From assembly GCA_964576615.1 (NCBI GenBank), contig CAZNUU010000005.1, positions 1 to 50,484 on the forward strand: a DNA stretch of 50,484 bases, read 5' to 3'. The notes beneath the pieces were generated by a model. It saw only the letters and a program-made list of their open reading frames with translations, searched no databases and was not told where the DNA came from. Below are positions 21,885-50,484 of the stretch, one piece after another; the first letter of the stretch is position 1, and the number at the start of each line of letters is the position of its first letter. This DNA is from an uncultured Candidatus Saccharibacteria bacterium (GTDB lineage Bacteria > Patescibacteriota > Minisyncoccia > Phycocordibacterales > DATDWN01). The translations under genes and the position numbers were made by a program.

Positions 21885-21916
21885 GTGACCTCCAGATTTA
21901 TATTAACACAAATTTT

Positions 21917-22090
21917 GCGCGAGTGACCGGACTTGTTCCCTACTGGAACAGTACCCCAATTGGATATTTTTGTTCGTGAACTCCAAAAATATCTCAATCG
22001 GGCTTCAAGTCCTGGGGGTGCTCTCGCATAAAGCAAAACTGAGCCAGCCAAAGCTGACTCGGTTTTACTTAGCGCGAGTGACCGGACTTG
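21917..22090 (-). mobile_element. Non-coding mini-element flanked by a 19-bp direct repeat of the tRNA-Asp 3' end
   Basis: GCGCGAGTGACCGGACTTG at 21917-21935 and 22072-22090, with hairpins between. Confidence 0.75.
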
Positions 22091-22146: not shown

Positions 22147-22195
22147 ATAGGGATTAAATTTATCAAAAAAGTTTGCTTTTATCAACGAAATCGTG

Positions 22196-22269
22196 TGTCG
22201 GCGGGAAGAGTCGCACTTCCGACCTTGGGCTTATGAGTCCCACGCTCTAACTGTCTGAGCTACGCCGAC
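22196..22269 (-). tRNA. tRNA-Met(CAT), elongator (or Ile2)
   Basis: GTCGGCG/CGCCGAC acceptor, TGGGA-CTCATAA-GCCCA anticodon arm, T-loop TGCGACT. Confidence 0.85.
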
Positions 22270-22286
22270 AATAGGCAAAATATAAC

Positions 22287-22316
22287 AGAAAAAACTTCCG
22301 TTTGGAAGTTTTTTCT
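22287..22316. terminator. Bidirectional terminator-like hairpin between tRNAs
   Basis: AGAAAAAACTTCC-GTTT-GGAAGTTTTTTCT. Confidence 0.55.
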
Positions 22317-22322
22317 TTCTTG

Positions 22323-22393
22323 TTGCGGAGCCCAGATTTGCACTGAGATCCCAAGGTTATGAGCCTTGTGAGTTACTGTTACTCCACCCCGCT
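22323..22393 (-). tRNA. Initiator-like tRNA-fMet(CAT)
   Basis: 1:72 mismatch (A:A), purine-11:pyrimidine-24 pair, anticodon arm CAAGG-CTCATAA-CCTTG. Confidence 0.85.
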
Positions 22394-37820: not shown

Positions 37821-38426
37821 TTATTGACTTGGAGCTATCGCCTCGACTGCTTTTTTATACGAAACCACTTCGGGCAAAAGATTAGCCATAAAACTTACTG
37901 TGACATTGCCATCGTCTATTGGGCTGAAGTTTGAAAACTGTGCATTTTTTACAAAATCACTTTGGGTAAAGATATTCTGCTGTTGCACTAGTGCATTATA
38001 ACTTCTAGCTTGAGCCTTCATTGATATAGTAGATAACCCTGCAGCACTTTTGTAACTCAGGTTATCTATTTTCATATTTTTCAAAGTGTCACTCTCCATT
38101 AAATGGAGAAATTTGGAAACAACTACGTGGTTGTCCAGAAGAGTTTTAGCCGCCACCATCCTCGCATTGAAATCGAAAAGCTCCTTTATTTTATCTGGTT
38201 GAAAAGCAGCCCTGGCCTGATCTACTTTTTTGTCTCCGTCCGCAATTTGGCTCTGCAGGAGGCTTTTGTAGAAATAGAGGGCTCCGGCAGATAGGATAGT
38301 GACCAAGAAGATTATGGTGGCAATGATAGTAAATATATTTGTCTGCCTGACTACAGCAAACCCCGTAGATTGACCAGGCACAATCGGTTTTTTAGGAATG
38401 AACGATGTCTGAAACTTAGGTTCCAT
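37821..38426 (-). CDS. PilN-like protein
   Basis: MEPKFQTSFIPKK, TM helix, position between pilM and pilO. Start 38426. Confidence 0.7.
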   Translation of the reverse strand: MEPKFQTSFIPKKPIVPGQSTGFAVVRQTNIFTIIATIIFLVTILSAGALYFYKSLLQSQIADGDKKVDQARAAFQPDKIKELFDFNARMVAAKTLLDNHVVVSKFLHLMESDTLKNMKIDNLSYKSAAGLSTISMKAQARSYNALVQQQNIFTQSDFVKNAQFSNFSPIDDGNVTVSFMANLLPEVVSYKKAVEAIAPSQ

Positions 38427-38455
38427 CTTAGTTAAAATTATAATACAAATGCCCA

Positions 38456-38551
38456 AGTAGAGCTATAAAAACTGTGTATATCCGCACACTACACTTTGTT
38501 ACAGATTTCATCATGCACATAGTGCAATAACAAAGTTAGTGTGCGGATATA
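38456..38551. repeat. Intergenic element, degenerate head plus 15-bp inverted repeat (copy 3)
   Basis: AGTAGAGC-TATAAAAA head (3-nt deletion versus copy 2), perfect arms at 38477-38491 and 38537-38551, extended by an inner 9-bp pair. Confidence 0.6.
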
Positions 38552-38601
38552 AAAAGAGAAACTCCGCAAGGTGGGGTTGCGGAGTCCCCTTCCTTGCGGA
38601 G

Positions 38602-38733
38602 TCAGATGAGATGCAGTAGGCGAAGCACCATAGCGCCGATCACACCAACCACAGCCAGCACGCCTGCCCCGATGATGACCGGGTGGAGTCTGGTGTCGTT
38701 TTGTTCGGTTCTGGTGTCGTCAGTGATAGACAT
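38602..38733 (-). CDS. 43-aa GC-rich single-TM orphan peptide
   Basis: GGAGGGAGG RBS, MSITDDTRTEQNDTRLHPVIIGAGVLAVVGVIGAMVLRLLHLI, downstream hairpins. Confidence 0.55.
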   Translation of the reverse strand: MSITDDTRTEQNDTRLHPVIIGAGVLAVVGVIGAMVLRLLHLI

Positions 38734-38785
38734 AGCCTCCCTCCAATCTGAAATATAAGCCCAAGAGAATGAGTAGTCAACCAGG

Positions 38786-39895
38786 CTAGTTAACCTCTTG
38801 GAGTTTCCTAAGAGCAACACCGACTGCTACCGCAAACTCTGGTCCAGTATCCTTAAGAATCTTTTCTAGAAATGCTGGAGCCACCACCTTTGAAAAAGGA
38901 TCCCCGGCTACAACTTCAGTCTGAAACATTTCTTTAGCCGCATCGACAATACCCTTAAGAGCACTGCCGCCACCGATGAGCACCACCCTACTTACATCTT
39001 TGTTGTATTTTTTCTGGTAAGCCAAAACAACATGACTAGCTTCGGAAAAAATATAATTTAAAGTAAAGGACGCCACGTCTTTGATCTTGATTCCATTTAT
39101 TTCGCCCAAAAGTCCGCGATCTCTCTTGGCATACTCCGCATCTTCGATAGTTATTCCTAATGATTTTGACATTTCATCAGTTATGGAGTGCGAGCCTCGA
39201 TCAATCATATGGGATGAGCGCAAAATTCCACGTTCCACAATATAAAGCTTGGTGCTGGATGCTCCCATATCAACCAGCATCACCGGTTTCATATCCTGAT
39301 CCAGAATCGATCGCATGGTACTGAAAATTTCTATCTCAAAAAAACCTGCCTCGAGTTGAGTTTTCTCCACAATAGTTTTGTATTTGTTTAAAGTATCGTT
39401 GTGAATTGCCACAGCTAGAACTTCTAGTTTTGGGGGCTCGGGATTGCCTTCCATCTGCATTTCCCTAGGATTTTTTTCTTGAGGAATAATGTACCAATCC
39501 AAAGTAACTTCAGAGATTGGCACTGGAATATATTTTCGTGCCTCGAGTGGAACCATCTGGTCGAGTTGTTTTTTTGGCACAACTGGCATTGAGATAACTG
39601 CCATTAAACTTGAGGCAAAAGGGATAGCTACCCCACAAATTTTACTGGTAATGTTTACTTCTTTTTCCTTAAGCATATCTCTCACGGCTTCCACCATTTT
39701 TTCGGTCGAAAGGTTGGTTGATTCCCCCACCCCCTTACCAGTGTAAGGCCCCAGTGCAAGTTCACCGTATGTTTCCAGCACGGCCCTACCACCTTTGCGG
39801 CTAATTTGGACCATTTTTATGGAAGATGAACCTATATCTATACCAACTACACTTGCAGTTTTTTTGGAGAATAGATCACTAAAAAAATTAGCCAT
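38786..39895 (-). CDS. pilM: Type IV pilus assembly protein PilM
   Basis: VGIDIGSSSIK, EARKYIPVP, VDMGASST, LIGGGS.L, FAVAVGVALR. Confidence 0.93.
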   Translation of the reverse strand: MANFFSDLFSKKTASVVGIDIGSSSIKMVQISRKGGRAVLETYGELALGPYTGKGVGESTNLSTEKMVEAVRDMLKEKEVNITSKICGVAIPFASSLMAVISMPVVPKKQLDQMVPLEARKYIPVPISEVTLDWYIIPQEKNPREMQMEGNPEPPKLEVLAVAIHNDTLNKYKTIVEKTQLEAGFFEIEIFSTMRSILDQDMKPVMLVDMGASSTKLYIVERGILRSSHMIDRGSHSITDEMSKSLGITIEDAEYAKRDRGLLGEINGIKIKDVASFTLNYIFSEASHVVLAYQKKYNKDVSRVVLIGGGSALKGIVDAAKEMFQTEVVAGDPFSKVVAPAFLEKILKDTGPEFAVAVGVALRKLQEVN

Positions 39896-39950
39896 AATGG
39901 ATGAAAAATACTTTTTTATTGTAACACATATAGCAGGTTATAATAAACGT

Positions 39951-40607
39951 ATGGTGAAAAGACTTACCTCTCTCTGGACATATTTTCTAGACTACATCCT
40001 ACCTCAAAGGTCTGACTTCAATATCGTAAAGAGACTAGACGAAAAAGACATCGAAAACTTACCCAAAGCAAGAGATGTCCAAGATTTAGATTGGATTCAT
40101 CCCCTATTCAATTACAAAGACAACAAAGTTAGGGCAATTATCTGGGAATTGAAATACAAAAACAATACTCGTGTTTTATATTTTATTGGCAGAGGTTTAT
40201 TCGAGGAAATAATTTATTTGATTTCGGATTTAGCCCTCTTCAATAACGACGCTGGATTTCTTTTAATTCCGATTCCAATTACATCTAATAGACGAAGGGA
40301 GCGTGGTTATAATCAAAGCGAGTATATTGCCAAAGCGATTATTGAAAACGATCTAGATCATAATCTGATTTACGCTCCCCAATTTCTCTCAAAGGTGAAA
40401 GAAACTCAACGTCAGAGTCACAGTGTTTCGAAAGAAGAGAGACAGAGAAATTTATCGGGGTGCTTTGCGGCAGACTCCAGAGTCGAGGGTAAATTTGTGA
40501 TCTTGATTGATGATGTGGTTACAACTGGAGCAACTTTGTCGGAAGCGAAAAAAACTTTACTCGAAAAAGGTGCCAGAGACGTTTACGCTTTTACGATTGC
40601 TCACTGA
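39951..40607 (+). CDS. comF: ComF family phosphoribosyltransferase-like competence protein
   Basis: PIP...RRRERGYNQS, LIDDVVTTGATL. Start 39951 with TATAAT 6 nt upstream. Confidence 0.9.
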   Translation: MVKRLTSLWTYFLDYILPQRSDFNIVKRLDEKDIENLPKARDVQDLDWIHPLFNYKDNKVRAIIWELKYKNNTRVLYFIGRGLFEEIIYLISDLALFNNDAGFLLIPIPITSNRRRERGYNQSEYIAKAIIENDLDHNLIYAPQFLSKVKETQRQSHSVSKEERQRNLSGCFAADSRVEGKFVILIDDVVTTGATLSEAKKTLLEKGARDVYAFTIAH

Positions 40608-40733
40608 AAATCTCATCGAGTCATGCCTTGAGAAAAGCCTAGGGAGCGCGACGGCGTGAGCTCGAGGAAAATTTCAGTAGAAATTTATCCGTGCTTTTCG
40701 AGAGATATGACGATGGTGAGATTTTCAGTGAGC
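40599..40733. mobile_element. MITE-like 135-bp element with 17-bp terminal inverted repeats
   Basis: GCTCACTGAAAATCTCA (40599-40615) and TGAGATTTTCAGTGAGC (40717-40733). The left arm contains the comF stop. Confidence 0.65.
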
Positions 40734-40739
40734 AAAATT

Positions 40740-41285
40740 TTAGATGTTGAAAGCTGTGAAGTTGTGACCTGTGATGATCTTGTCCACCTCTTCGTAACCC
40801 GTTAAGTAGGAGTAGTTATACCTTGCTGGAATAGCGAACACATAGGTGTTATTGCGACCAATTTCACTAGGATTTATTGGTGCTGCCCCAATATGAAATT
40901 CATCTTTTTGCATACTGTTCCATTGTTTTATTGTGAACACCATAACCGGAATATCTTGACGAGGTGCTTTGTAATCCCAGTCCGGATGACGGATTGAAAC
41001 AAGTGGTCCATGCTCTGTTACAACCTGCTTACCGTTTTGAATTTCAAAACCATCCCATTCATCTTCAATAACTGTGTAATCCTTCCATGTTTTCGGCAGT
41101 GCGAAAGAAAATCCATATTCTGTGTTCTTGTATAAAATCGTGTCATTTTTAACAACTGGAGTTGTGGTCGTAGAATTATTTCCAGTAGTGGAAGTGTTTC
41201 CTGATTGTTTTGATGTTGAGTAATAAATACCGAGAGCAATTAAAATAATTACAACAAAAAGCAAAATCATTTTATACCTGTTCAT
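40740..41285 (-). CDS. Hypothetical membrane-anchored exported protein
   Basis: TM helix, Thr/Asn linker, Y.N..YGFSF.LP..W motif. Confidence 0.7.
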   Translation of the reverse strand: MNRYKMILLFVVIILIALGIYYSTSKQSGNTSTTGNNSTTTTPVVKNDTILYKNTEYGFSFALPKTWKDYTVIEDEWDGFEIQNGKQVVTEHGPLVSIRHPDWDYKAPRQDIPVMVFTIKQWNSMQKDEFHIGAAPINPSEIGRNNTYVFAIPARYNYSYLTGYEEVDKIITGHNFTAFNI

Positions 41286-41304
41286 GTGCATATTATAGCA
41301 TTTT

Positions 41305-41589
41305 CTATAAACCTAAATGGTGTACGCTCAAAATAAGAAGCCCGGTTGCTACGATTTGAGCAACTACAATTCTTTCCGTGATCATTTCATTTTCTCTCCA
41401 ATTTCTGAAGGCAAAATGAAGTACTAGTATCGGGGCTAAAACAAGCCATATTTGAAAAAGGTGGGCACCAACCCCCTCGTCTGGCTGGTAAACAACACCA
41501 TATTTTGAAACATCTAGAATAATCCAAGAAATAAAAACTACCGGCACAAGTATCGGCACCCAAGCCCCTGGTTTTTTTAAAAGATTCAT
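41305..41589 (-). CDS. Small three-TM membrane protein; ATG overlaps tRNA CCA
   Basis: MNLLKKPGAW..PDEGVGAHLFQIWL. The track start at 41682 lies across the tRNA. Confidence 0.65.
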   Translation of the reverse strand: MNLLKKPGAWVPILVPVVFISWIILDVSKYGVVYQPDEGVGAHLFQIWLVLAPILVLHFAFRNWRENEMITERIVVAQIVATGLLILSVHHLGL

Positions 41590-41680
41590 GGCGGAGACGG
41601 ATGGATTCGAACCATCGGTGCCTTTTAAGGGGCACGCCTCTTTAGCAAAGAGGTACATTAGACCACTCTGACACGTCTCC
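41589..41680 (-). tRNA. tRNA-Ser(GCT), CCA encoded
   Basis: GGAGACG/CGTCTCC acceptor, CCTCT-TTGCTAA-AGAGG anticodon arm, long variable arm, G73. Confidence 0.95.
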
Positions 41681-41773
41681 AAGTGATGTTAGATTAACAC
41701 ATATTGACGCAGTAGATAAGAGTTTATTTTATAGATACAATGATTAGTGTAATTATTCATTAAATAAATCAAA

Positions 41774-41995
41774 ATGGAAGATTTATCTCAACCAAATCAA
41801 TACACCAACGAGGATTTAGAGAGTGCCAAAAATTCAATGGACGAAGCGGAAAGAATAATACAGGCATTTAATTTCGAAGATCCTAATCATGATAAAGCAC
41901 AGGCCCAAATAAATCATGAGGACTGGAAAGAAAAGCGAACAAAGTATTTAACAATAAAACACGAACTAGAAAAAGGAGAAGGGATGGCAGCATAG
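41774..41995 (+). CDS. Small acidic hypothetical protein
   Basis: 73-aa ORF filling the gap between the divergent tRNA-Ser genes. Confidence 0.5.
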   Translation: MEDLSQPNQYTNEDLESAKNSMDEAERIIQAFNFEDPNHDKAQAQINHEDWKEKRTKYLTIKHELEKGEGMAA

Positions 41996-42000
41996 TTATT

Positions 42001-42090
42001 GGACAGATGGGTGAGTGGTTTAAACCAACGGTTTACTAAACCGTCGTACCTTAACCGGTACCGCGAGTTCGAATCTCGCTCTGTCCGCCA
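42001..42090 (+). tRNA. tRNA-Ser with ACT anticodon (A34), CCA encoded
   Basis: GGACAGA/TCTGTCC acceptor, ACGGT-TTACTAA-ACCGT anticodon arm, GTACC/GGTAC variable arm, G73. Confidence 0.9.
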
Positions 42091-42232
42091 GAGAACAAGA
42101 CGAAGTCTTGTGTCGGGATTCGAAAGACAGAGCGGGCACTAGCTCAGTAGAGCTGGTCGCGAGTCCGGGTAGGGAAAATTTTTGAGCGGCGGCGAAAAAA
42201 TTATTCCTGACCGAATCTCGCTCTGTCCGCCA
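42070..42232 (+). mobile_element. Non-coding mini-element flanked by a 21-bp direct repeat of the tRNA-Ser 3' end
   Basis: CGAATCTCGCTCTGTCCGCCA at 42070-42090 and 42212-42232, with hairpins between. Confidence 0.78.
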
Positions 42233-42319
42233 AGTAGAATTTTCTCCATTGAGCGAGTAGTGGAATTCTTATTGACTCTTGCTTAGACCTGATGTAATAC
42301 AATAGCAGGAGGACGAGAG

Positions 42320-42679
42320 ATGAAGACAGTGAATGCTTTCTTGCTCGGAACAGTGATCACACTCGGAGGTATCGCCTGCATCGAGTACCAGACGATCATC
42401 TCGCAGGCCAGCGAGCTCACGAGTCTGCGGACAGCAAAAGCAACCCTGCTCAAAGACGTGAACGAGACCAACCGGAAGTTTGGTGAAGCCGATCTCGCTC
42501 GGCAGATCAGCGAGGCCGCCTTCGAGAAGTGGCAGAAAGAATCAACCTATCTCTACACGCCGGCGATCTTGCGACAGCTGAAACCGGTGCCGCTCCCCGA
42601 CGGGACAAGCAAGGTGGTCTGGCCGAATCCGTACGACCTCCCCAAGCTTGTCGAGGCGTACTGCACCGCTCGACGCTGA
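42320..42679 (+). CDS. GC-rich orphan: TM plus coiled-coil protein
   Basis: AGGAGG RBS and a downstream GC hairpin (42714-42749). Confidence 0.6.
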   Translation: MKTVNAFLLGTVITLGGIACIEYQTIISQASELTSLRTAKATLLKDVNETNRKFGEADLARQISEAAFEKWQKESTYLYTPAILRQLKPVPLPDGTSKVVWPNPYDLPKLVEAYCTARR

Positions 42680-42713
42680 CAAGTCTCCAGTCTCGACCCA
42701 ACACAGAAACACC

Positions 42714-42749
42714 GCCGCCCGAAAGTCACCTGACTTCAAATCGGGCGGC
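42714..42749 (+). terminator. Terminator
   Basis: GCCGCCCGA/TCGGGCGGC stem followed by TTTCTTTTC. Confidence 0.65.
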
Positions 42750-42823
42750 TTTCTTTTCTTATACATAAGGAATTCTAACTTGACATTACTCGGTAATATT
42801 ATACTCTCGAGCAAGAGGAGGTT

Positions 42824-43150
42824 GTGATGGGAGCAATTGTTCTGTTGTGTGCTCTTGGGACCATTGTGTCTCTCCTGTCCCCGATGTGCACACTGATTGA
42901 AGTGGAGATGAAGGACTCAAGGTTCGTGGGGATCCCGCTTTTCATTGTCGGACTCGTCGGCTACGGGATGATCTTGCTTTCAACCAGTTCCCAGCCCGCA
43001 ATGTGGGTCGTGATGCCGCTGCTCGCGGCCTTCACGATCTACCTCATCGTGAAGGCGATGAAACTCAGACTGTTGTGCACACTGTGCATCGCAGCCTGGA
43101 TCATCAACTTTTCCATTGTCTACATCTGGGCCCGTTCTCTCCTGGTCTAA
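42824..43150 (+). CDS. Vitamin K epoxide reductase (VKOR)-like membrane protein
   Basis: C...S.FVGIPL..VGLVGY and an LCTLC CxxC motif in the last TM region. GAGGAGG RBS; start at 42824 or 42827. Confidence 0.65.
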   Translation: MMGAIVLLCALGTIVSLLSPMCTLIEVEMKDSRFVGIPLFIVGLVGYGMILLSTSSQPAMWVVMPLLAAFTIYLIVKAMKLRLLCTLCIAAWIINFSIVYIWARSLLV

Positions 43151-43153
43151 ACA

Positions 43154-43189
43154 AATGCCTCGTGTGATCGAAAGATCACACGAGGCATT
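43154..43189. terminator. Perfect 16-bp hairpin with GAAA loop
   Basis: AATGCCTCGTGTGATC-GAAA-GATCACACGAGGCATT. Confidence 0.7.
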
Positions 43190-43219
43190 CGATTTTTAAA
43201 AAATGCTATGATATTTCCT

Positions 43220-43960
43220 ATGTCTAGTTTGAAAAACAAAAATGTCTGGATCACAGGTGGCAGGAGAATTGGCCAGCATATCGCAGAGGTCTTTGCGCAG
43301 GAGGGAGCTAACTTAATTTTAAGTTACCGAAGCTCGTCTAAGGAGGCAGAAGAAATTGTAAAAAATGTTGCTAAATTTTCTGTAGAAACACTCCCCCTTC
43401 AGTGCGATGTCTCCTCTCGCGAGAGTGTGGAAAAAGCAGTCCACGATATTTCCAAAAAATTCAAGCAAATAGATACTCTAATTAATCTCGCCTCAGTTTT
43501 TACTCCTGTAAAATTTGAAAATATTACTGAAAAAGAGTGGCTAGCAAACATTGATGCGCATATTCTCGGGACATTTTGGCCATCGCAAGCCATTTCAAAA
43601 ATAATGCCCAGTGGCGGACACATTATTAATGTAGCGGACAGAACTTCGATCGGAAAAGTTTACAGCGGCTATCTCCCCTACGTTGTAACAAAAGGTGCAA
43701 TCGCAACAATGACCGAAGCACTTGCAGTAGAACTTGCTACCCAAGGAATTTTTGTAAACGCAATTGCACCTGGACCAATCCTTCGGCCTGAAGATATTTC
43801 CGAAAAAGATTGGCAAGAGATTCGTGATAATTCCCCACTTAAATATCATATAGATGACAAGGAAGCAGTTGATCAGTTTGCCAAGCTCGCTCTCTATCTT
43901 GCCCAAGTAACCATGGCAAGCGGTTACACCTACCCTCTCGATCAAGGCCAGAATCTATAG
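43220..43960 (+). CDS. SDR oxidoreductase, pteridine reductase/FolM-like
   Basis: ITGGRRIG, YVVTK (YxxxK), VNAIAPG. Start probably 43220. Confidence 0.8.
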   Translation: MSSLKNKNVWITGGRRIGQHIAEVFAQEGANLILSYRSSSKEAEEIVKNVAKFSVETLPLQCDVSSRESVEKAVHDISKKFKQIDTLINLASVFTPVKFENITEKEWLANIDAHILGTFWPSQAISKIMPSGGHIINVADRTSIGKVYSGYLPYVVTKGAIATMTEALAVELATQGIFVNAIAPGPILRPEDISEKDWQEIRDNSPLKYHIDDKEAVDQFAKLALYLAQVTMASGYTYPLDQGQNL

Positions 43961-44033
43961 TAAGAAACCTTGCCACAGACGTCTCTTTGTAGTAGAGTGA
44001 ACCAAATCAAAACTGGCTATATTAAGCCATAAA

Positions 44034-45266
44034 ATGACTACAACAAAGGAAAAACTGGATAAATTGGAGGAGGAATTATCGCGAGGTAGCGATATTTCTA
44101 TTATTAATCTCGTCGATTACCTCATTGAGAAGGCTCATATTAGCCGAGTTTCTGACATACATATCGACCCAACACCAAAAGATATAAAAGTTCGTTTTCG
44201 AATTGATGGCGTTTTGCAAGAAGCTTACGTTTTTCCCAAAACAATTCACGGTGAAATTATTTCTAGAATAAAAGTTCTCTCGCGGCTAAGGACTGACGAA
44301 CACCAAGCAACCCAGGATGGTCGTTTCCGATATATTTTTCCTGACACTAATGAGTTTCTGGATTTGCGTGTCTCTATCATTCCAACTTATCATGGCGAAA
44401 ACGTGGTGCTAAGGCTTCTTTCCGACAAACAAGAAAGTTTTACACTAGAAGCTCTAGGATTTTCCGACAGCGATCAGAAAAAAATTCAAAAAGCTATAAA
44501 AAAGACAAGTGGCATGATCCTCGCCACTGGCCCAACTGGCTCTGGCAAGACAACTACGCTTTATACCCTCATCAAAAAGCTAAACTCACCTGAAGTTTCT
44601 ATCATAACCATCGAAGATCCGATCGAATACGCGGTAAATGAGATAGAACAGATCCAGGTAAATCCAAAAGCTGGACTTACTTTTGCAAATGGCCTGCGCA
44701 GTATCCTTCGCCAGGACCCAAACATCATCATGGTCGGTGAGATTCGAGACTCCGAGACAGCATCGATTGCCGTAAACACAGCTCTCACCGGTCACTTGCT
44801 ACTTTCAACTCTTCACACTAACGACTCAGCTACATCAATTCCTAGGCTTCTAGATATGGGTATTGAAGAATACTTAGTTGCTTCAACACTTTCAGTTGCA
44901 ATTGCTCAAAGATTGGTTAGAAAAATCTGCAAAAAGTGTAAAGAGAAATCCAAAATGACCCCGGCTCTCAAAGAGAGTCTAATGACTACACCTTTTGGCA
45001 AGTACATAAAGGACGACATGGTAATTTATAGAGGAAAAGGTTGTGAGGAATGCAATAAAAGTGGTTACCAAGGCCGAATTTGTATAAACGAGGTTTTGGT
45101 CGCAGATGATAAAATTAAAGAAGCGATCCTTCGAAAAGCTTCTGCAAACGAAGTAAGAAATTTGGCGATAAAAGCCGGCATGACCACGATGTTCGAAGAC
45201 GGTTTTCACAAAGTCGAGAAAGGTGAAACAACTGTAGAAGAAATCCTACGCGTCATCCATGAATAA
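44034..45266 (+). CDS. GspE/PilB family ATPase (short N-terminus)
   Basis: SDIHIDP, GPTGSGKTTT, RQDPNIIMVGEIRD, CKKC..CEEC zinc motif. Confidence 0.92.
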   Translation: MTTTKEKLDKLEEELSRGSDISIINLVDYLIEKAHISRVSDIHIDPTPKDIKVRFRIDGVLQEAYVFPKTIHGEIISRIKVLSRLRTDEHQATQDGRFRYIFPDTNEFLDLRVSIIPTYHGENVVLRLLSDKQESFTLEALGFSDSDQKKIQKAIKKTSGMILATGPTGSGKTTTLYTLIKKLNSPEVSIITIEDPIEYAVNEIEQIQVNPKAGLTFANGLRSILRQDPNIIMVGEIRDSETASIAVNTALTGHLLLSTLHTNDSATSIPRLLDMGIEEYLVASTLSVAIAQRLVRKICKKCKEKSKMTPALKESLMTTPFGKYIKDDMVIYRGKGCEECNKSGYQGRICINEVLVADDKIKEAILRKASANEVRNLAIKAGMTTMFEDGFHKVEKGETTVEEILRVIHE

Positions 45267-46413
45267 AATCAATTTTAAATTTAACCGGTTAAAAGTTGGA
45301 AAAAACCAGACTCCAAAAACAGAGGTAACAAAGAAAAAAGAACCGAAGAAGAACATATATGCTAGAAAATTGTCGATTAAGGATCAGACTTTTTTTGTAA
45401 AAAGACTTTCTTTTTTGATTAAGGCTGGCATTCCTCTCTTGGAAAGCTTACACATTATTACCGAACAAACTAAATCAAGAAATTATTCTAGAATTTTAGA
45501 GACGATAACTGACGATGTGGCGAGTGGTCAAACTCTTTCCCGAAGCCTAGGGAAATTTAAAAAATCTTTTGGTGAATTCTCGATAAATATTATTGCTTTT
45601 GGCGAAACTAGTGGAATTTTAAGTGAAAATTTGGAATATCTCGCAGACGAACTAAAAAAAAGACAGGCTTTGCGAAGAAAAGTTGTTGGTTCAATGATTT
45701 ACCCTGCCGTAGTTACTTTAGCTACAATCGCAATCACCTCATTTCTGATCCTATTCCTTTTCCCTAAAATAATTCCTGTTTTCAGTAGCCTACATGGCAC
45801 ACTACCTCTCTCAACCAGAATGCTTATCGCTCTAAGCAACTTCCTCAAAAGCTACGGTCTTTATCTCTTGGCAGCACTTTTTATTATTGCAGTAGGGACG
45901 ATTGTTGCAATGGAAAAAAGCTTAAAATTTCGTTATCAATTCGATAAATTTCTTCTGAAAATTCCGGGTATTGGTAATGCTGTGAAAAATTATAATCTTG
46001 CAAACAGTACTCGAACTTTGGGTCTTTTATTAAAAAGTGGCATAACTGCTAGCGAAGCTTTCCCAATCACGGCTAAAACAAGCCAGAATTTAGTTTATAA
46101 AGAAGGTTTTGAAAAAATGTCTTTATCCATTGACCGTGGTGAGAGATTATCTGCTTATATAAATAAAAGAAGTGATATTTTCCCAGATGTAATTTCGCAA
46201 ATTATTTCTGTGGGCGAGCGAAGTGGTAATCTTTCTAACTCATTGGTTTACCTATCAGAAATGTATGAAGCAGAAGTAGATGAATTCACAAAAAACCTGT
46301 CTAACTTAATTGAACCGGTGCTTATGATTTTCATGGGTATAATAGTTGGTTTTATTGCAATATCTATAATCACACCTATATATAGCATTACTCAATATCT
46401 CCAGGTAAAATGA
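45259..46413 (+). CDS. GspF/PilC family platform protein
   Basis: GETSGILSENL, VGERSGNL, LIEPVLM. Confidence 0.9.
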   Translation: MNKINFKFNRLKVGKNQTPKTEVTKKKEPKKNIYARKLSIKDQTFFVKRLSFLIKAGIPLLESLHIITEQTKSRNYSRILETITDDVASGQTLSRSLGKFKKSFGEFSINIIAFGETSGILSENLEYLADELKKRQALRRKVVGSMIYPAVVTLATIAITSFLILFLFPKIIPVFSSLHGTLPLSTRMLIALSNFLKSYGLYLLAALFIIAVGTIVAMEKSLKFRYQFDKFLLKIPGIGNAVKNYNLANSTRTLGLLLKSGITASEAFPITAKTSQNLVYKEGFEKMSLSIDRGERLSAYINKRSDIFPDVISQIISVGERSGNLSNSLVYLSEMYEAEVDEFTKNLSNLIEPVLMIFMGIIVGFIAISIITPIYSITQYLQVK

Positions 46414-46865
46414 CAACTCCAAATAAACAGGGTGGTCTTACTTTAGTTGAATTAATTGTGGTAATTGCAATCATCGGAGTAATCATAAGTTTTGGATTAG
46501 TAATTAGTATGGATTCTTATCGAGCTTACTATTTTAGATCTGAAAGATCTAAAATAGTAAGCGTCCTGGAAAGAGCTCGCAGCAGGAGTTTGAGTAACTA
46601 TTTTCAAGTCGAGCATGGGGTATGCTTTATTACTTCAAATTATGTTATATTTCGCGGTAGATCAACTTGTACCCCTGGTGCCACAACTGATGAGTTGATA
46701 CCAGCTAATACTGATATTGCAAGTAAATCTAATTTTTCAGGAACCTTTCCAACAATCATCTTTAGCCAACTTACCGCAACTACAACTGGTGGGACAATCA
46801 ACATTACTGACGGAAATAGATCAGCAATAATAAATGTAAACTATGAAGGTAAAATCAATTGGTAA
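46410..46865 (+). CDS. Pilin-like protein (GspH/FimT-like)
   Basis: GG|LTLVE class III signal. Confidence 0.82.
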   Translation: MTTPNKQGGLTLVELIVVIAIIGVIISFGLVISMDSYRAYYFRSERSKIVSVLERARSRSLSNYFQVEHGVCFITSNYVIFRGRSTCTPGATTDELIPANTDIASKSNFSGTFPTIIFSQLTATTTGGTINITDGNRSAIINVNYEGKINW

Positions 46866-48339
46866 ATATAGATATTCCAAAGGAAGTATGACCCTAGAAA
46901 TACTCCTAGCTTTTGCAATAGTTATCTTATGTATGAGTGCTGTTATTTCCTTAAGTTTTGGTAGTCAGTCACTTACAGTTGATGCAGAGACGAACACGGA
47001 GGCAATTTCCAAAGCAAAAAAGATGCTTGAGGATGCTCGTGATGTTTCCAGACAAGACTATCTTTCGATAACATCAAATAGTATAAATGAAACCGTTGGC
47101 CCATTAACTTATCTAAAAAAACTAGATGTTCAAGACATAACTGCTTGCAAAAAAATCGCCACAAGCACAGTCAGTTGGACAAATGGGGGAAAAAGTGAAT
47201 CTATCACATTTGCTACATACCTGGGTAATGTAGCTGAGGCATTATCTTTGGGAGGAGATTGTATAAGTGATTCTCCCACTTCTGGTTGGACCAATCCGCA
47301 ACGATTTGCCTCAGATACATTTAGCCCAGGTAAACCAACAGCAATCGATCTTCTAAACAAAGTTGTATACATGGGTGAAGATAAAAATCCTTTTTTTGCA
47401 ATTGCTAATACAAACGGTGCCATCCTTGGTCAGTCTGGAGGATTATTCGTTTCTTTTTCAAATGGTTTTGTAGCAAACAAACAGATAAACGACTTGGATG
47501 CAATAAATTGGACAAGCCCAGGAGGGACACAAGAAAAGTATATTTTTGCCGCTGAAGATAGCTCAACAAATCAATTGCAAGTCATAAAAGCAACAACTAT
47601 GACTGCTCCCACTTCAGCTGCCCTAGTTTCACTGTCCCCTTGTGTAGCTGGTTCAGCTCCACAAGGATGGAAAGTTTATTATTACGGAAATAGATTATAC
47701 CTAACTACTCGATTCACAGCAGGACCAGAATTTCACATCTTTGATGTTACAACCCCTTCTTCCCCATCAGAAATAGGGATTGGTGCATGTAAAGGCACTG
47801 ATTTGGGCGACACAGTAAACGATTTTATTGTTAAAGATCAAATGATTGGAGGTGTGACCCGTAGGTTCGTTTACATGGCAACAGATGAGTTAGATAAAGA
47901 ACTCAGAGTCTTTGAAGTCACAGGGGATGTTGTGACTGAAATTTTTGCTGCCAACCAAAATCTGCCTGGTGCACAAAACGGTGAAAGTGTTTATTCAGTT
48001 GGAAACAAACTTTATCTTGGCAGACAATCAACACCAGGCGGGCCTGACCTTTATGTCTACGATATCAAAGACCCAACATCTGGTCTAACATTACTCGGAT
48101 CAAAAGATATTGGAACTGGTGTGATTGGGATTAGGGTGGCTGGAAATTTTGCCTTTATTTCCACACCTAAAGTAAACCAGGAGTTTCAAGTTTGGAATAT
48201 CTATGACCCGAATAGTATATCTAACATTGCTGTATATAATTTCGGTAACGTAGTAGATCAAGGTATAGAGTACGAACCAGATTTTATATATGCGACCGGC
48301 CAATCAACTCCAAACTTTCAGATTCTATACAGCCCATAA
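46843..48339 (+). CDS. Large pilin-like protein with C-terminal LVIVD-like beta-propeller repeats
   Basis: KG|SMTLE signal, then repeated V.GN.LYL...F.I.D...P units. Confidence 0.75.
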   Translation: MKVKSIGKYRYSKGSMTLEILLAFAIVILCMSAVISLSFGSQSLTVDAETNTEAISKAKKMLEDARDVSRQDYLSITSNSINETVGPLTYLKKLDVQDITACKKIATSTVSWTNGGKSESITFATYLGNVAEALSLGGDCISDSPTSGWTNPQRFASDTFSPGKPTAIDLLNKVVYMGEDKNPFFAIANTNGAILGQSGGLFVSFSNGFVANKQINDLDAINWTSPGGTQEKYIFAAEDSSTNQLQVIKATTMTAPTSAALVSLSPCVAGSAPQGWKVYYYGNRLYLTTRFTAGPEFHIFDVTTPSSPSEIGIGACKGTDLGDTVNDFIVKDQMIGGVTRRFVYMATDELDKELRVFEVTGDVVTEIFAANQNLPGAQNGESVYSVGNKLYLGRQSTPGGPDLYVYDIKDPTSGLTLLGSKDIGTGVIGIRVAGNFAFISTPKVNQEFQVWNIYDPNSISNIAVYNFGNVVDQGIEYEPDFIYATGQSTPNFQILYSP

Positions 48340-48830
48340 TGAAAAAAGGATTTACTTTAGTCGAGACAATTGTTTATATTGCGCTGTTCAGCATCATTAT
48401 GACTGGTGCTTTTGTTACAGCTTATCAATTAATTGTGGGTTCGGATAGATTAAATACGAAAAAAACCATTCAGAGTGAAGGCAACTTTGTGTTAGCAAAA
48501 ATTGGTTGGGCCCTCGATTCGGTTTCGACTAGTTCAGCAGAAATAATAAGTCCTCCCCAGACTCCCCCTTATACAAGCAACACACTTTCTCTCAAAAAAT
48601 ACTATCTGGGAGAAAAAATCAGTGTATCTATTCAATACGATGCAGTAAATAAAGCTGTTTTATTCCAAGAGGGTTCTGGCCCATTAGTTCCGATTACAAC
48701 TAACAACGTGAGTATTTCCAAGATTGAGTTTAGATTTATGCCTCCGACCGGTTCCTCCCCTGCGGGCCTAGCGGCAACCACCACCATAAATGGAATTGAT
48801 TTTGCCATAACAAAATATATTCGAAAATGA
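48339..48830 (+). CDS. Minor pilin (PilW-like)
   Basis: KG|FTLVE class III signal. Confidence 0.82.
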   Translation: MKKGFTLVETIVYIALFSIIMTGAFVTAYQLIVGSDRLNTKKTIQSEGNFVLAKIGWALDSVSTSSAEIISPPQTPPYTSNTLSLKKYYLGEKISVSIQYDAVNKAVLFQEGSGPLVPITTNNVSISKIEFRFMPPTGSSPAGLAATTTINGIDFAITKYIRK

Positions 48831-49207
48831 ACAAGGGATTTGTGGCTTTAATATCCAGTATTATTATTTCAGCGATTCTTTTAATTATTTTGACTACACT
48901 TTCGTTAGGAGAATTTTATACTCGCTATAACATACTGGATTCGGAGTTAAAAGAGCGGAGCAGAGATATTGCAGACGCGTGCGTCGACGAAACATTACTA
49001 GCAATCGCAAATAACTCTGCTTATACAGGTAACGAAACAAAAACGGTGAATGAGAATACTTGTTTTATAGATACAGTTGTCACAAATGGTAGTGAAAAAA
49101 GTTTCAGGATCCGAGCAATTTACCAGAACTACTTTACTAGTTTAAAAATTATTATAGATTCAAGTACCTTAAATGTTCTTTCTTGGGAAGAGATCAGAAG
49201 CTTCTAG
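48827..49207 (+). CDS. PilX-like minor pilin
   Basis: KG|FVALIS (no Glu5), ADAC..E.L motif. Confidence 0.75.
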   Translation: MNKGFVALISSIIISAILLIILTTLSLGEFYTRYNILDSELKERSRDIADACVDETLLAIANNSAYTGNETKTVNENTCFIDTVVTNGSEKSFRIRAIYQNYFTSLKIIIDSSTLNVLSWEEIRSF

Positions 49208-49287
49208 GTCTTCACAAATTCATTATCTTGTGGTAGCTTATGGAAATCTTATAAAACAGTTTATAAGTTTTACAAGTAACAATAAAT

Positions 49288-49758
49288 ATGAAAAAAAACG
49301 CTAAAAATAAGGGTTTTACTCTTATTGAGATCTTGGTGGTTATTGGGATTATAGCTATTCTAGCTACTATAGTTATTATTGCTATTAACCCAGCCAGACA
49401 GTTTGCTCAAGCAAGAAATACCCAAAGATTAAGTAACTTGAACACAATACTTAATGCTATAGGCCAAAACATGGCAGACAATAAAGGTATCTGGACTTGT
49501 TCGAATGGAGGTGTACCAGTTTTCTTTAAAACATCAACCGCAAGTACATCGATAGGAACATCAGGCTCAGACTTGAGTTGTTTAGTACCAACGTATATCT
49601 CCTCTGGTATTCCTATGGACCCATCAGATGGAATACAAAGTAATACAGATTATTGGATCTCAACAACTTCTACAAATCAGGTTATGTTATGTGCACCAAG
49701 ATCAGCTGAGACGGCAATCAGTAGCCCTCCCCCAACACCACTCTGCGTAACTCGTTAA
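49288..49758 (+). CDS. Type IV pilin
   Basis: KG|FTLIEILVVIGIIAILA..INP.RQF.QARN.QR, P.DP motif. Confidence 0.88.
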   Translation: MKKNAKNKGFTLIEILVVIGIIAILATIVIIAINPARQFAQARNTQRLSNLNTILNAIGQNMADNKGIWTCSNGGVPVFFKTSTASTSIGTSGSDLSCLVPTYISSGIPMDPSDGIQSNTDYWISTTSTNQVMLCAPRSAETAISSPPPTPLCVTR

Positions 49759-49767
49759 TCACAACAC

Positions 49768-49803
49768 AAAAAACACCAGGGGATAAGACCTCTGGTGTTT
49801 TTT
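49768..49803. terminator. Terminator
   Basis: AAAAAACACCAG/CTGGTGTTTTTT stem. Confidence 0.7.
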
Positions 49804-49895
49804 GTTATGCGGAATAAAATGTAATAAAGGCGTATTTCAAGCGTCTATATAGTTTGTGAGTTGAATAGATTATTTATTAGTAATTAAAATAAGAT

Positions 49896-50484
49896 ATGAA
49901 GAAAATTGTAAGTTTAATTATTGGATTATCGATGGTGGCTGCGCCAGCATTTGCTTTTGCAACCACAACCCCAAGTGCTAGTGTCCAAGCACTGATTGAT
50001 CAAATCAAGCTTTTACAGACCCAGATTCAATCCCTTCAGACAGCCCAGAATAATGTTGCAAGCACAACAATAGCTATTCGAAACTTGAGAAAAGGTATGT
50101 CTGGTGATGACGTTAAAGCTCTGCAGGCGATCCTCGCAGCTGATCCAACCATATTCCAAGGAGGCATAACTGGTTTCTTTGGCCCATTAACTGAACAAGG
50201 TCTGAAAAAATGGCAGAAGAAAAATGGCTTGGAAGGAGTTGGTTTTGTCGGACCAAGAACCTTGAATAAATTGTTTGAGGAATTAAACCACCTGGGTTTG
50301 AAGCAGGAAAAAGATGATGAGAATGAAAACCATGCCACAAGCACAGGCAACAAAATCTGTATTCCTCCTGGTCATGAGATTGCTCCTGGCTGGCAAAAAC
50401 ATCACGACGATCAAGGTAATGGTGATCTACCAAGTTGTAAGCATCACGGTGAAGACGAGCATGGAGACAATAACAAGGATCAAC
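49896..50484 (+). CDS. Secreted peptidoglycan-binding domain protein (partial)
   Basis: Manual translation: MKKIVSLIIGLSMVAAPAFAFA signal, coiled coil, RNLRKGMSGDDVKALQAIL..ITGFFGPLT..WQKKNGL..G.VGPRT, His/Asp-rich tail. Confidence 0.8.
   Translation, partial: MKKIVSLIIGLSMVAAPAFAFATTTPSASVQALIDQIKLLQTQIQSLQTAQNNVASTTIAIRNLRKGMSGDDVKALQAILAADPTIFQGGITGFFGPLTEQGLKKWQKKNGLEGVGFVGPRTLNKLFEELNHLGLKQEKDDENENHATSTGNKICIPPGHEIAPGWQKHHDDQGNGDLPSCKHHGEDEHGDNNKDQ

Follow-up and report, generated by a model that had tools for sequence, protein, structure and literature searches.

A serine tRNA gene with the anticodon ACT, tRNA-Ser(ACU), is encoded at 42001-42090 (+) of the window, the whole stretch of 50,484 nucleotides analysed here, which comes from an uncultured Candidatus Saccharibacteria bacterium. 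The tRNA is a new isoacceptor within the known tRNA-Ser family and breaks a rule of the current literature. It is probably a functional auxiliary serine isoacceptor, which reads AGU by Watson-Crick pairing of an unmodified A34. A wider reading, towards which we lean with less assurance, is that this is the first natural split-box A34 tRNA and acts as a codon-optimality switch. Under this wider reading, an unmodified ACU anticodon could be tolerated where TadA is missing, and the gain or loss of the tRNA would flip the AGU/AGC preference, even within a genus. Phages carry the same tRNA, presumably for their own AGU-rich genes. Three of the results are new, namely a presence/absence polymorphism of the ACT tRNA within one genus, a flip of the AGY preference that goes with it, and a systematic negative search for TadA.

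The gene, its partner and its conservation

The source genome (G000) is a 677-kb assembly of 11 contigs with 40% GC and 93.6% completeness, and the window is its contig C5. ARAGORN calls eight tRNA genes in the window, including tRNA-Ser(act) at the position given above, and the gene matches the Rfam tRNA model (RF00005) with 57.7 bits (gathering score 29, E = 2.4e-11). The acceptor stem reads GGACAGA/TCTGTCC, the anticodon stem ACGGT/ACCGT and the T-arm CGCGAG TTCGAAT CTCGC. The discriminator is a G (G73) and the CCA is encoded at 42088-42090. The anticodon ACT (A34 C35 U36) occupies 42035-42037 (+) within the loop TTACTAA (42033-42039). The predicted fold is a class II cloverleaf by both ARAGORN and Rfam, with a long variable arm composed of a stem and a loop. 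The first-pass annotation had described an intact cloverleaf with serine identity elements, an encoded CCA and the anticodon ACT, together with a distinct GCT isoacceptor 320 bp away in the opposite orientation, and all of these points were borne out. Antisense matches to the Rfam model ‘Plastid-psbl-rps4’ are an artefact, as this model overlaps a tRNA-Ser gene.

ACT is the sole A-initial anticodon among the 41 tRNA genes of G000. The serine anticodons of the genome are TGA, CGA, GGA, GCT and ACT, and a single canonical copy of serS is present (C1:183145-184386; 437.9 bits against a cut-off of 301.65). Seryl-tRNA synthetase (SerRS) reads the variable arm, G73 and the acceptor stem, and not the anticodon. 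It is proposed that the single canonical SerRS charges tRNA-Ser(ACU) via these same three elements.

The divergent partner of the gene is tRNA-Ser(GCU), the canonical AGY reader, at 41589-41680 (-) (ARAGORN; 51.8 bits in Rfam). The 320-bp spacer between the two genes (41681-42000) contains an orphan 73-aa ORF (41774-41995, +) which stops 5 nt ahead of the ACT tRNA and for which no Pfam or PHROG match was found. It also contains weak promoter-like hexamers (4 sites versus 1.9 expected). In about half of the relatives the spacer is 50-90 bp long, and in the rest it ranges from ~150 to 1070 bp. By ARAGORN, the two genes stand side by side in 18 of the 20 genus loci (17 of the 19 from relatives). 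Among the matches listed for other species, 80 of the 120 loci also contain the GCT gene, often less than 100 bp away. The conserved unit of the locus is the tRNA pair.

The two partners are 69% identical in G000, and the bodies of ACT and neighbouring GCU tRNAs are 60-80% identical (median 66%) in the 80 other-species loci among the matches listed. The closest relative of the ACT tRNA within G000 is tRNA-Ser(CGA), with 84% identity. The ACT tRNA is therefore an old, separate isoacceptor, and its origin as a fresh G34A mutant of the adjoining GCT gene was ruled out on the same identities. It may have arisen through an anticodon change on a UCN-type body, a route that SerRS, which ignores the anticodon, would permit.

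Pattern searches located the ACT gene in 30 of the 41 genomes of the genus, and when 60 relatives were searched by BLAST with the 90-nt gene, the matches within the genus were full-length and 78-92% identical. All 19 genus loci fetched from other species genomes contain a tRNA-Ser(act) by ARAGORN. Since the same gene and anticodon recur in 19 other species genomes, the base at the anticodon is not an assembly slip. The segment CGGTTTACTAAACCG, which covers the anticodon, is invariant across 20 genus sequences, and the stems vary through paired changes. The anticodon loop is constant in 19 distinct genus sequences whose bodies are 78-92% identical. Analysis of these 19 sequences with RNAalifold found double compensatory changes in 13 of the 27 pairs and no broken pair, and the variable-arm stem of five pairs is itself maintained by compensatory changes. 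G1-C72, G2-C71, A3-U70 and G73 are invariant throughout; G73 and the acceptor pairs are serine identity elements, as known from E. coli SerRS. The substitution pattern clearly points to purifying selection on the ACT tRNA. The ACT tRNA is a real, conserved gene, and very probably a working one.

Credible absences of the gene in the genus comprise only three genomes. Two of them, G007 (98% complete) and G017 (100% complete), have the GCT gene in the interior of a contig, and its 1.5-kb flanks contain neither an ACT gene nor a remnant of one; BLAST and pattern searches found no ACT gene elsewhere in these two genomes. The third, G011, has the GCT gene and lacks ACT. Neither gene was found in G028 and G032; the locus is therefore probably unassembled there. 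Some sister species can do without the ACT tRNA. In G017 (C1; L298, ~1592-1790) and G007 (C1; L300, ~1593-1800), a mini-element of the tRNA-trailing family described below flanks tRNA-Ser(GCT) on its 5′ side. This element bears an 18-nt echo of the 5′ end of the tRNA (CACTCTGACACGTCTCCA) and occupies the place that the ACT gene has in other species. Its insertion may have accompanied the loss of the ACT gene.

Codon choice and the reading of AGU

The highly expressed set of G000 consisted of 17 ribosomal-protein genes with EF-Tu, EF-G, DnaK, GroEL, RpoB and RpoC (7350 codons). In this set the AGT/AGC count is 50/9 (85% AGT), compared with 67% AGT in the other long ORFs (odds ratio (OR) 2.8, p = 0.003). 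Among the remaining two-codon boxes with G34 tRNAs, the shift either goes towards C, opposite to AGY, or is absent (OR in the highly expressed set: His 0.49, Tyr 0.58, Asn 0.76, Phe 0.81).

The same preference was followed across the genus in up to 21 orthologous highly expressed genes. The 11 genomes with ACT have an AGT/AGC count of 380/86 (82% AGT), whereas G007 and G017, where ACT is absent and the GCT locus intact, have 20/48 (29% AGT). The AGY odds ratio between the ACT-bearing genomes and this pair is 10.6. The other two-codon boxes of G007 and G017 lean somewhat towards C as well, although at odds ratios of 1.2-3.3 this is far below the AGY value. Within the 21 highly expressed genes of G002 (L313, L323), AGT is used 57 times versus 1 for AGC, and AAT 41 times versus 178 for AAC. 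The T-ending share of this genome is 19% for Asn and only 19-27% for Asn, His and Tyr. This split is the clearest single-genome sign of AGU having its own efficient reader.

For each genome an index was calculated, which compares AGT:AGC with the pooled T:C of the six other two-codon boxes as a log odds ratio. In the genus, eight of the 11 ACT genomes score +0.76 to +4.18, and the three absences score -1.18, -0.31 and +0.19. At class level, with RpoB and RpoC, the index of the 37 genomes that lack the tRNA has a median of -1.03 and is negative in 31 cases. The four ACT carriers have a median of +0.94, made up of G047 at +2.77 (22/1), G000 at +1.46 (16/2), G519 at +0.43 and G300 at -0.52. The two highest indices among the 41 class genomes belong to ACT carriers of two different families. 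The one-sided Mann-Whitney p for this comparison is 0.002, from 4 versus 37 related genomes; the samples behind the coupling are small, and p-values overstate it because kin are not independent. No AGU excess is seen in the ACT-bearing G300, nor in G460, G461 and G462, which lie at about 0 on small samples. The AGU preference is coupled to the ACT tRNA, although not universally.

A functional AGU decoder is expected to shift codon choice in highly expressed genes by its presence, and this is what the genus and class comparisons above found. The tRNA may drive the usage, or the usage may favour keeping the tRNA, and in either causal direction the coupling requires the ACU tRNA to decode AGU. 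The opposite AGY preferences of sister species with and without the tRNA amount to a natural experiment.

The mechanism proposed is as follows. A34 would remain an unmodified adenosine, because the lineage is without a TadA-type tRNA deaminase, and would pair in Watson-Crick fashion with the U of AGU. Reading of AGU would be efficient, with AGA and AGG apparently unread. Compared with the G-U wobble of tRNA-Ser(GCU), the ACU tRNA would read AGU more rapidly or with higher accuracy; tRNA-Ser(GCU) still covers AGC and, by wobble, AGU. Highly expressed genes would then favour AGU among the AGY codons in genomes with the ACU tRNA, and AGC in those without it. We infer the charging with serine, the unmodified state of A34 and the exact codon range. 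An unmodified-A34 decoder for AGU was among the roles suggested in the first-pass annotation, and it gains support from the negative TadA search, from the use of tRNA-Arg(GCG) in place of ACG and from an AGU preference that tracks the tRNA.

Modification, mobile DNA and recoding as alternatives

Wobble bases are almost always modified in bacteria. A novel modification of A34 other than inosine might set or widen its decoding, for example to AGU and AGC, so that the tRNA would not be a plain Watson-Crick reader. The invariant TTACTAA loop and the strongly conserved anticodon stem RCRGT/ACYGY could serve as the recognition element of the enzyme. We know of no modification of A34 other than inosine, however, and few modification genes would be expected in genomes of ~0.7 Mb. 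The codon shift is also specific to AGU, as an unmodified A34 predicts, and a novel modification is considered unlikely.

The DNA behind the gene raises the question of whether the ACT tRNA has a translation role at all. Directly 3′ of it lies a gene-less, folded mini-element of 142 bp (42091-42232, +). The last 21 nt of the element (42212-42232) are an exact copy of the T-loop-to-CCA end of the ACT tRNA, where 0 would be expected by chance. The predicted fold is a three-way junction (-57 kcal/mol), with a closing stem that pairs GACAGAGCG with the 21-nt copy. No Rfam match to the element was found in a search of 41000-43000. Beyond it lies a GC-rich patch (42233-43150, +; 52-61% GC versus ~39%) with two small orphan ORFs (42320-42679 and 42824-43150; 119 and 108 aa). 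Neither ORF has a PHROG match, and the VKOR-like match of the second is weak (E = 0.006, below cut-off). No DNA similar to the patch was present in the loci fetched from relatives, and it is probably acquired DNA. The DNA 3′ of the ACT tRNA differs in nearly every relative.

These features, with the loss of the tRNA in some sister species, fit a tRNA with little or no part in translation, which would act as a landing site for mobile elements or a processing signal, or would be a drifting duplicate. The mini-elements do not single out this tRNA, however. The relatives L006, L009 and L015 have the same layout behind the ACT tRNA, each echoing its own tRNA variant. In G000, related elements trail the tRNAs for Trp, Ser-GGA, Asp, Ala, Cys, Arg, Lys, Ile, Gly, Val and Leu. 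These belong to two related gene-less, strongly folded families of ~100-170 nt, and several end in an exact copy of the 3′ end of their own tRNA and carry an antisense copy. Examples follow tRNA-Trp (C1:194526-194645), Ser-GGA (C2:86040-86211) and the Asp tRNA (window 21900-22071), with further copies at C3:76540-76640, C3:76780-76940, C4:10204-10335, C7:844-955 and C1:203500-203640. As like elements stand behind many G000 tRNAs, the mini-element does not explain the existence of the ACT tRNA; it lies outside the function of the tRNA.

No integrase or recombinase was found among the ORFs read in 38000-50484, nor did the seven ORFs closest to the tRNAs yield one when scanned with Pfam. The 21-nt exact repeat has the form expected at an attachment site, but it bounds only the 142-bp gene-less element. 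Its interpretation as attL/attR of an island that would explain the tRNA was rejected in view of the genome-wide element family and the lack of a nearby integrase. Retention as an integration target, another role suggested in the first-pass annotation, fails on the same grounds as the reason for the existence of the tRNA. In addition, all stems covary, the anticodon is constant over at least 119 species, and the codon choice of highly expressed genes follows the presence of the tRNA, an effect that an RNA without a decoding role would not have. It is quite unlikely that the gene has little or no place in translation.

Conversion of A34 to inosine by an unrecognised deaminase would let the tRNA read AGU, AGC and AGA, with a regulated or tolerated Arg-to-Ser ambiguity at AGA. 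It has been reported that engineered split-box A34 tRNAs are deaminated in E. coli (preprint 10.64898/2026.05.15.725136), and G000 does encode one protein with a cytidine-deaminase fold. This protein is a 286-aa ORF with the signature HAE...PCEDCAREI, in keeping with the dCMP-deaminase motif HAE...PCxxCAREI. It matches dCTP/dCMP deaminase models only, not those of TadA, and adjoins a ThyA-like gene. Its PF14437 deaminase match was accordingly ruled out as a TadA. The surrounding GC-rich stretch, C4:33283-36525 (L021), contains a cytidylyltransferase-like gene, the 286-aa protein with its C-terminal dCMP/dCTP-deaminase domain and, on the other strand, the ThyA-like 254-aa protein. This stretch looks like an acquired nucleotide-modification or anti-phage module.

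The first-pass annotation had proposed a survey of tadA. A search with the TadA model NF008113 found nothing in G000, even at E ≤ 1, and nothing above cut-off among the 41 genus genomes, where the top score was 53.9 bits (G028). A TadA gene, by which the inosine-34 class is recognised, was thus not found in G000 (93.6% complete). TadA-like matches (E ≤ 1e-5) occur in 101 of 401 phylum genomes and in one of 18 ACT carriers, a contrast that is suggestive only, because kin are not independent; the ACT-bearing phylum genome G166 has a TadA-like match of 74 bits. TadA recognises UACG. The ACT loop, UUACUAA, has a U at position 36 and therefore lacks the U33-A34-C35-G36 of TadA substrates. The arginine anticodons of G000 are GCG, TCG, TCT and CCT, and ACG is absent. 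Shulgina and Eddy describe the same replacement of ACG by tRNA-Arg(GCG) for the CPR (PMC8629427).

The use of AGA provides a further line of evidence. AGA is the commonest arginine codon of G000 (17.7 per thousand, 42% of arginine codons), and inosine at position 34 would read it, which counts against inosine. When DnaK and EF-Tu of G000 were aligned with solved bacterial homologues from the PDB, AGA stood opposite arginine at 14 of 17 sites and opposite serine at none. CGA stood opposite arginine at 10 of 12 sites, AGT faced small polar residues, and AGG had only 3 aligned sites, a weak test. Both arginine residues of the PilB motif QRLVRK are encoded by AGA, as had been noted at first pass. 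The suggestion made there that the tRNA is a source of mistranslation was not upheld, given the AGA alignments and the purifying selection on the tRNA. The evidence points against an inosine at position 34, and this reading is held to be very unlikely.

Reassignment of AGA and/or AGG to serine, as in invertebrate mitochondria, with the ACU tRNA as part of the change, might be suggested by the presence of the sole A34 tRNA of the genome in the split AGN box, but it is scarcely credible beside the genes for tRNA-Arg(TCT) and tRNA-Arg(CCT), the PilB codons and the alignments, which rule out recoding of AGA (AGG having 3 sites) and uphold the conclusion of the first-pass annotation that there is no recoding.

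G000 has a tRNA-Ile(TAT) and only two CAT tRNAs (C3:10015-10089 and window 22195-22393). The probable reader of AUA is therefore a UAU anticodon and not a lysidine-modified CAU tRNA. If true, this would be a further sign of a modification-poor decoding system.

Distribution and comparison with known systems

One genome per GTDB species was scanned with the pattern GAGTGG..TTACTAA..GTTCGAATC, and the same pattern was applied to IMG/VR. At least 120 GTDB-species records matched, and ARAGORN confirmed tRNA-Ser(act) in 119 of 120 among the matches listed. The listed matches are mostly titled Paceibacteria/Parcubacteria, Nomurabacteria, Magasanikbacteria, Zambryskibacteria, Taylorbacteria, Levyibacteriota or ‘Saccharibacteria’. 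The survey of the CPR for ACT tRNAs, which had also been proposed at first pass, thus places the tRNA in at least 119 other species genomes, mostly Patescibacteria. The anticodon stem is RCRGT/ACYGY in 117 of the 119 species tRNAs among the matches listed. No other ANN tRNA was found in G000, nor in the 120 species loci among the matches listed.

Nine of the records (L057, L058, L063, L066, L075, L083, L115, L125 and L126) are titled Gammaproteobacteria, Planctomycetaceae, Phycisphaerales, Pirellulales or Flavobacteriales. Their ACT tRNAs have the CPR-type stem RCRGT/ACYGY, and the records are either wrongly labelled or binned, or phage contigs. One Candidatus Levyibacteriota record (L088) encodes two tRNA-Ser(act) in opposite orientations, at 1623-1708 and 2709-2794, with ~1 kb between them.

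At least 88 uncultivated viral contigs of IMG/VR also matched, with tRNA-Ser(act) called by ARAGORN in 88 of 88 loci. The viral ACT tRNAs usually lie within tRNA clusters, and a GCT partner is present in 1 of 88 among the matches listed. A BLAST search of a phage collection with two of the viral ACT tRNAs matched only tRNA-Ser(TGA) genes.

Sampled evenly, the distribution of the ACT tRNA is patchy. The tRNA is present in 18 of 401 genomes of the phylum sample, chance matches removed, and in 4 of 71 genomes of the class sample at ≥95% completeness. The loose pattern used at phylum level gave chance matches about equal in number to those of a reversed control, and the 18 matches were retained by their layout of anticodon-stem strand, variable-arm hairpin and T-arm. 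No earlier account of tRNA-Ser(ACU) from the CPR or from phages was found in the literature searched. The locus makes it possible to test the decoding by an unmodified A34 in vivo, the loss of TadA as an opening for such tRNAs, and the reshaping of codon usage by an auxiliary tRNA. It is also relevant to the annotation of CPR and phage tRNA sets and to the codon optimisation of CPR genes for expression.

The nearest known system is the bacterial tRNA-Ser(GCU) of the E. coli serV type. Both tRNAs are class II with a long variable arm, G73 and the pairs G1-C72, G2-C71 and A3-U70. They share the loop U32 U33 N C U A37 A38 and the same codon box, and are encoded next door to each other. The bacterial tRNA-Ser(GCU) has G34, whereas the tRNA described here has A34, would read AGU by Watson-Crick pairing instead of G-U wobble and probably leaves AGC unread.

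The tRNA-Arg(ACG)/TadA system is similar in that its A34 is encoded by the gene and its anticodon is one base apart (ACU versus ACG). In contrast to that system, neither a TadA gene nor a tRNA-Arg(ACG) was found in G000, and the ACU tRNA is not assigned to this class.

A natural bacterial tRNA with an unmodified A34 is known in the tRNA-Thr(AGU) of Mycoplasma and other Mollicutes (Andachi 1987; Inagaki 1995, as cited in PMC11066159). These are likewise small, AT-rich genomes with few modification enzymes. An unmodified A34 can read beyond U in some contexts, the examples cited in PMC11066159 being Mycoplasma Thr and E. coli Gly-ACC. The threonine tRNA belongs to a family box in which all four codons have the same meaning, so that broad reading does no harm. 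The box of the ACU tRNA is split between AGY for serine and AGR for arginine, so that misreading would put serine at arginine codons.

Reviews consider ANN anticodons other than ACG to be absent in bacteria, above all in split boxes. A 2026 preprint likewise states that all fifteen non-ACG ANN anticodons are missing across bacteria and took this as a sign of selection against an unmodified A34 (10.64898/2026.05.15.725136). The engineered A34 tRNAs of M. jannaschii and E. coli origin have the same anticodon as the present tRNA. An orthogonal M. jannaschii tRNA(ACU) read AGU at 9.4% and AGG at 0.36%, with AGC and AGA below detection (PMC11066159). In E. coli, an engineered Ser-tRNA(ACU) improved growth, with a low predicted risk of mistranslation (preprint 10.64898/2026.05.15.725136). 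The lack of TadA leaves unexplained why only the AGY box gained an A34 tRNA, and the clean U-specificity of ACU in the published assays would be the likeliest reason. These engineered tRNAs are AGU-selective and neutral to beneficial for growth, which matches the role proposed here. They are laboratory constructs, whereas tRNA-Ser(ACU) is natural and conserved, a counter-example to the stated absence of non-ACG ANN anticodons.
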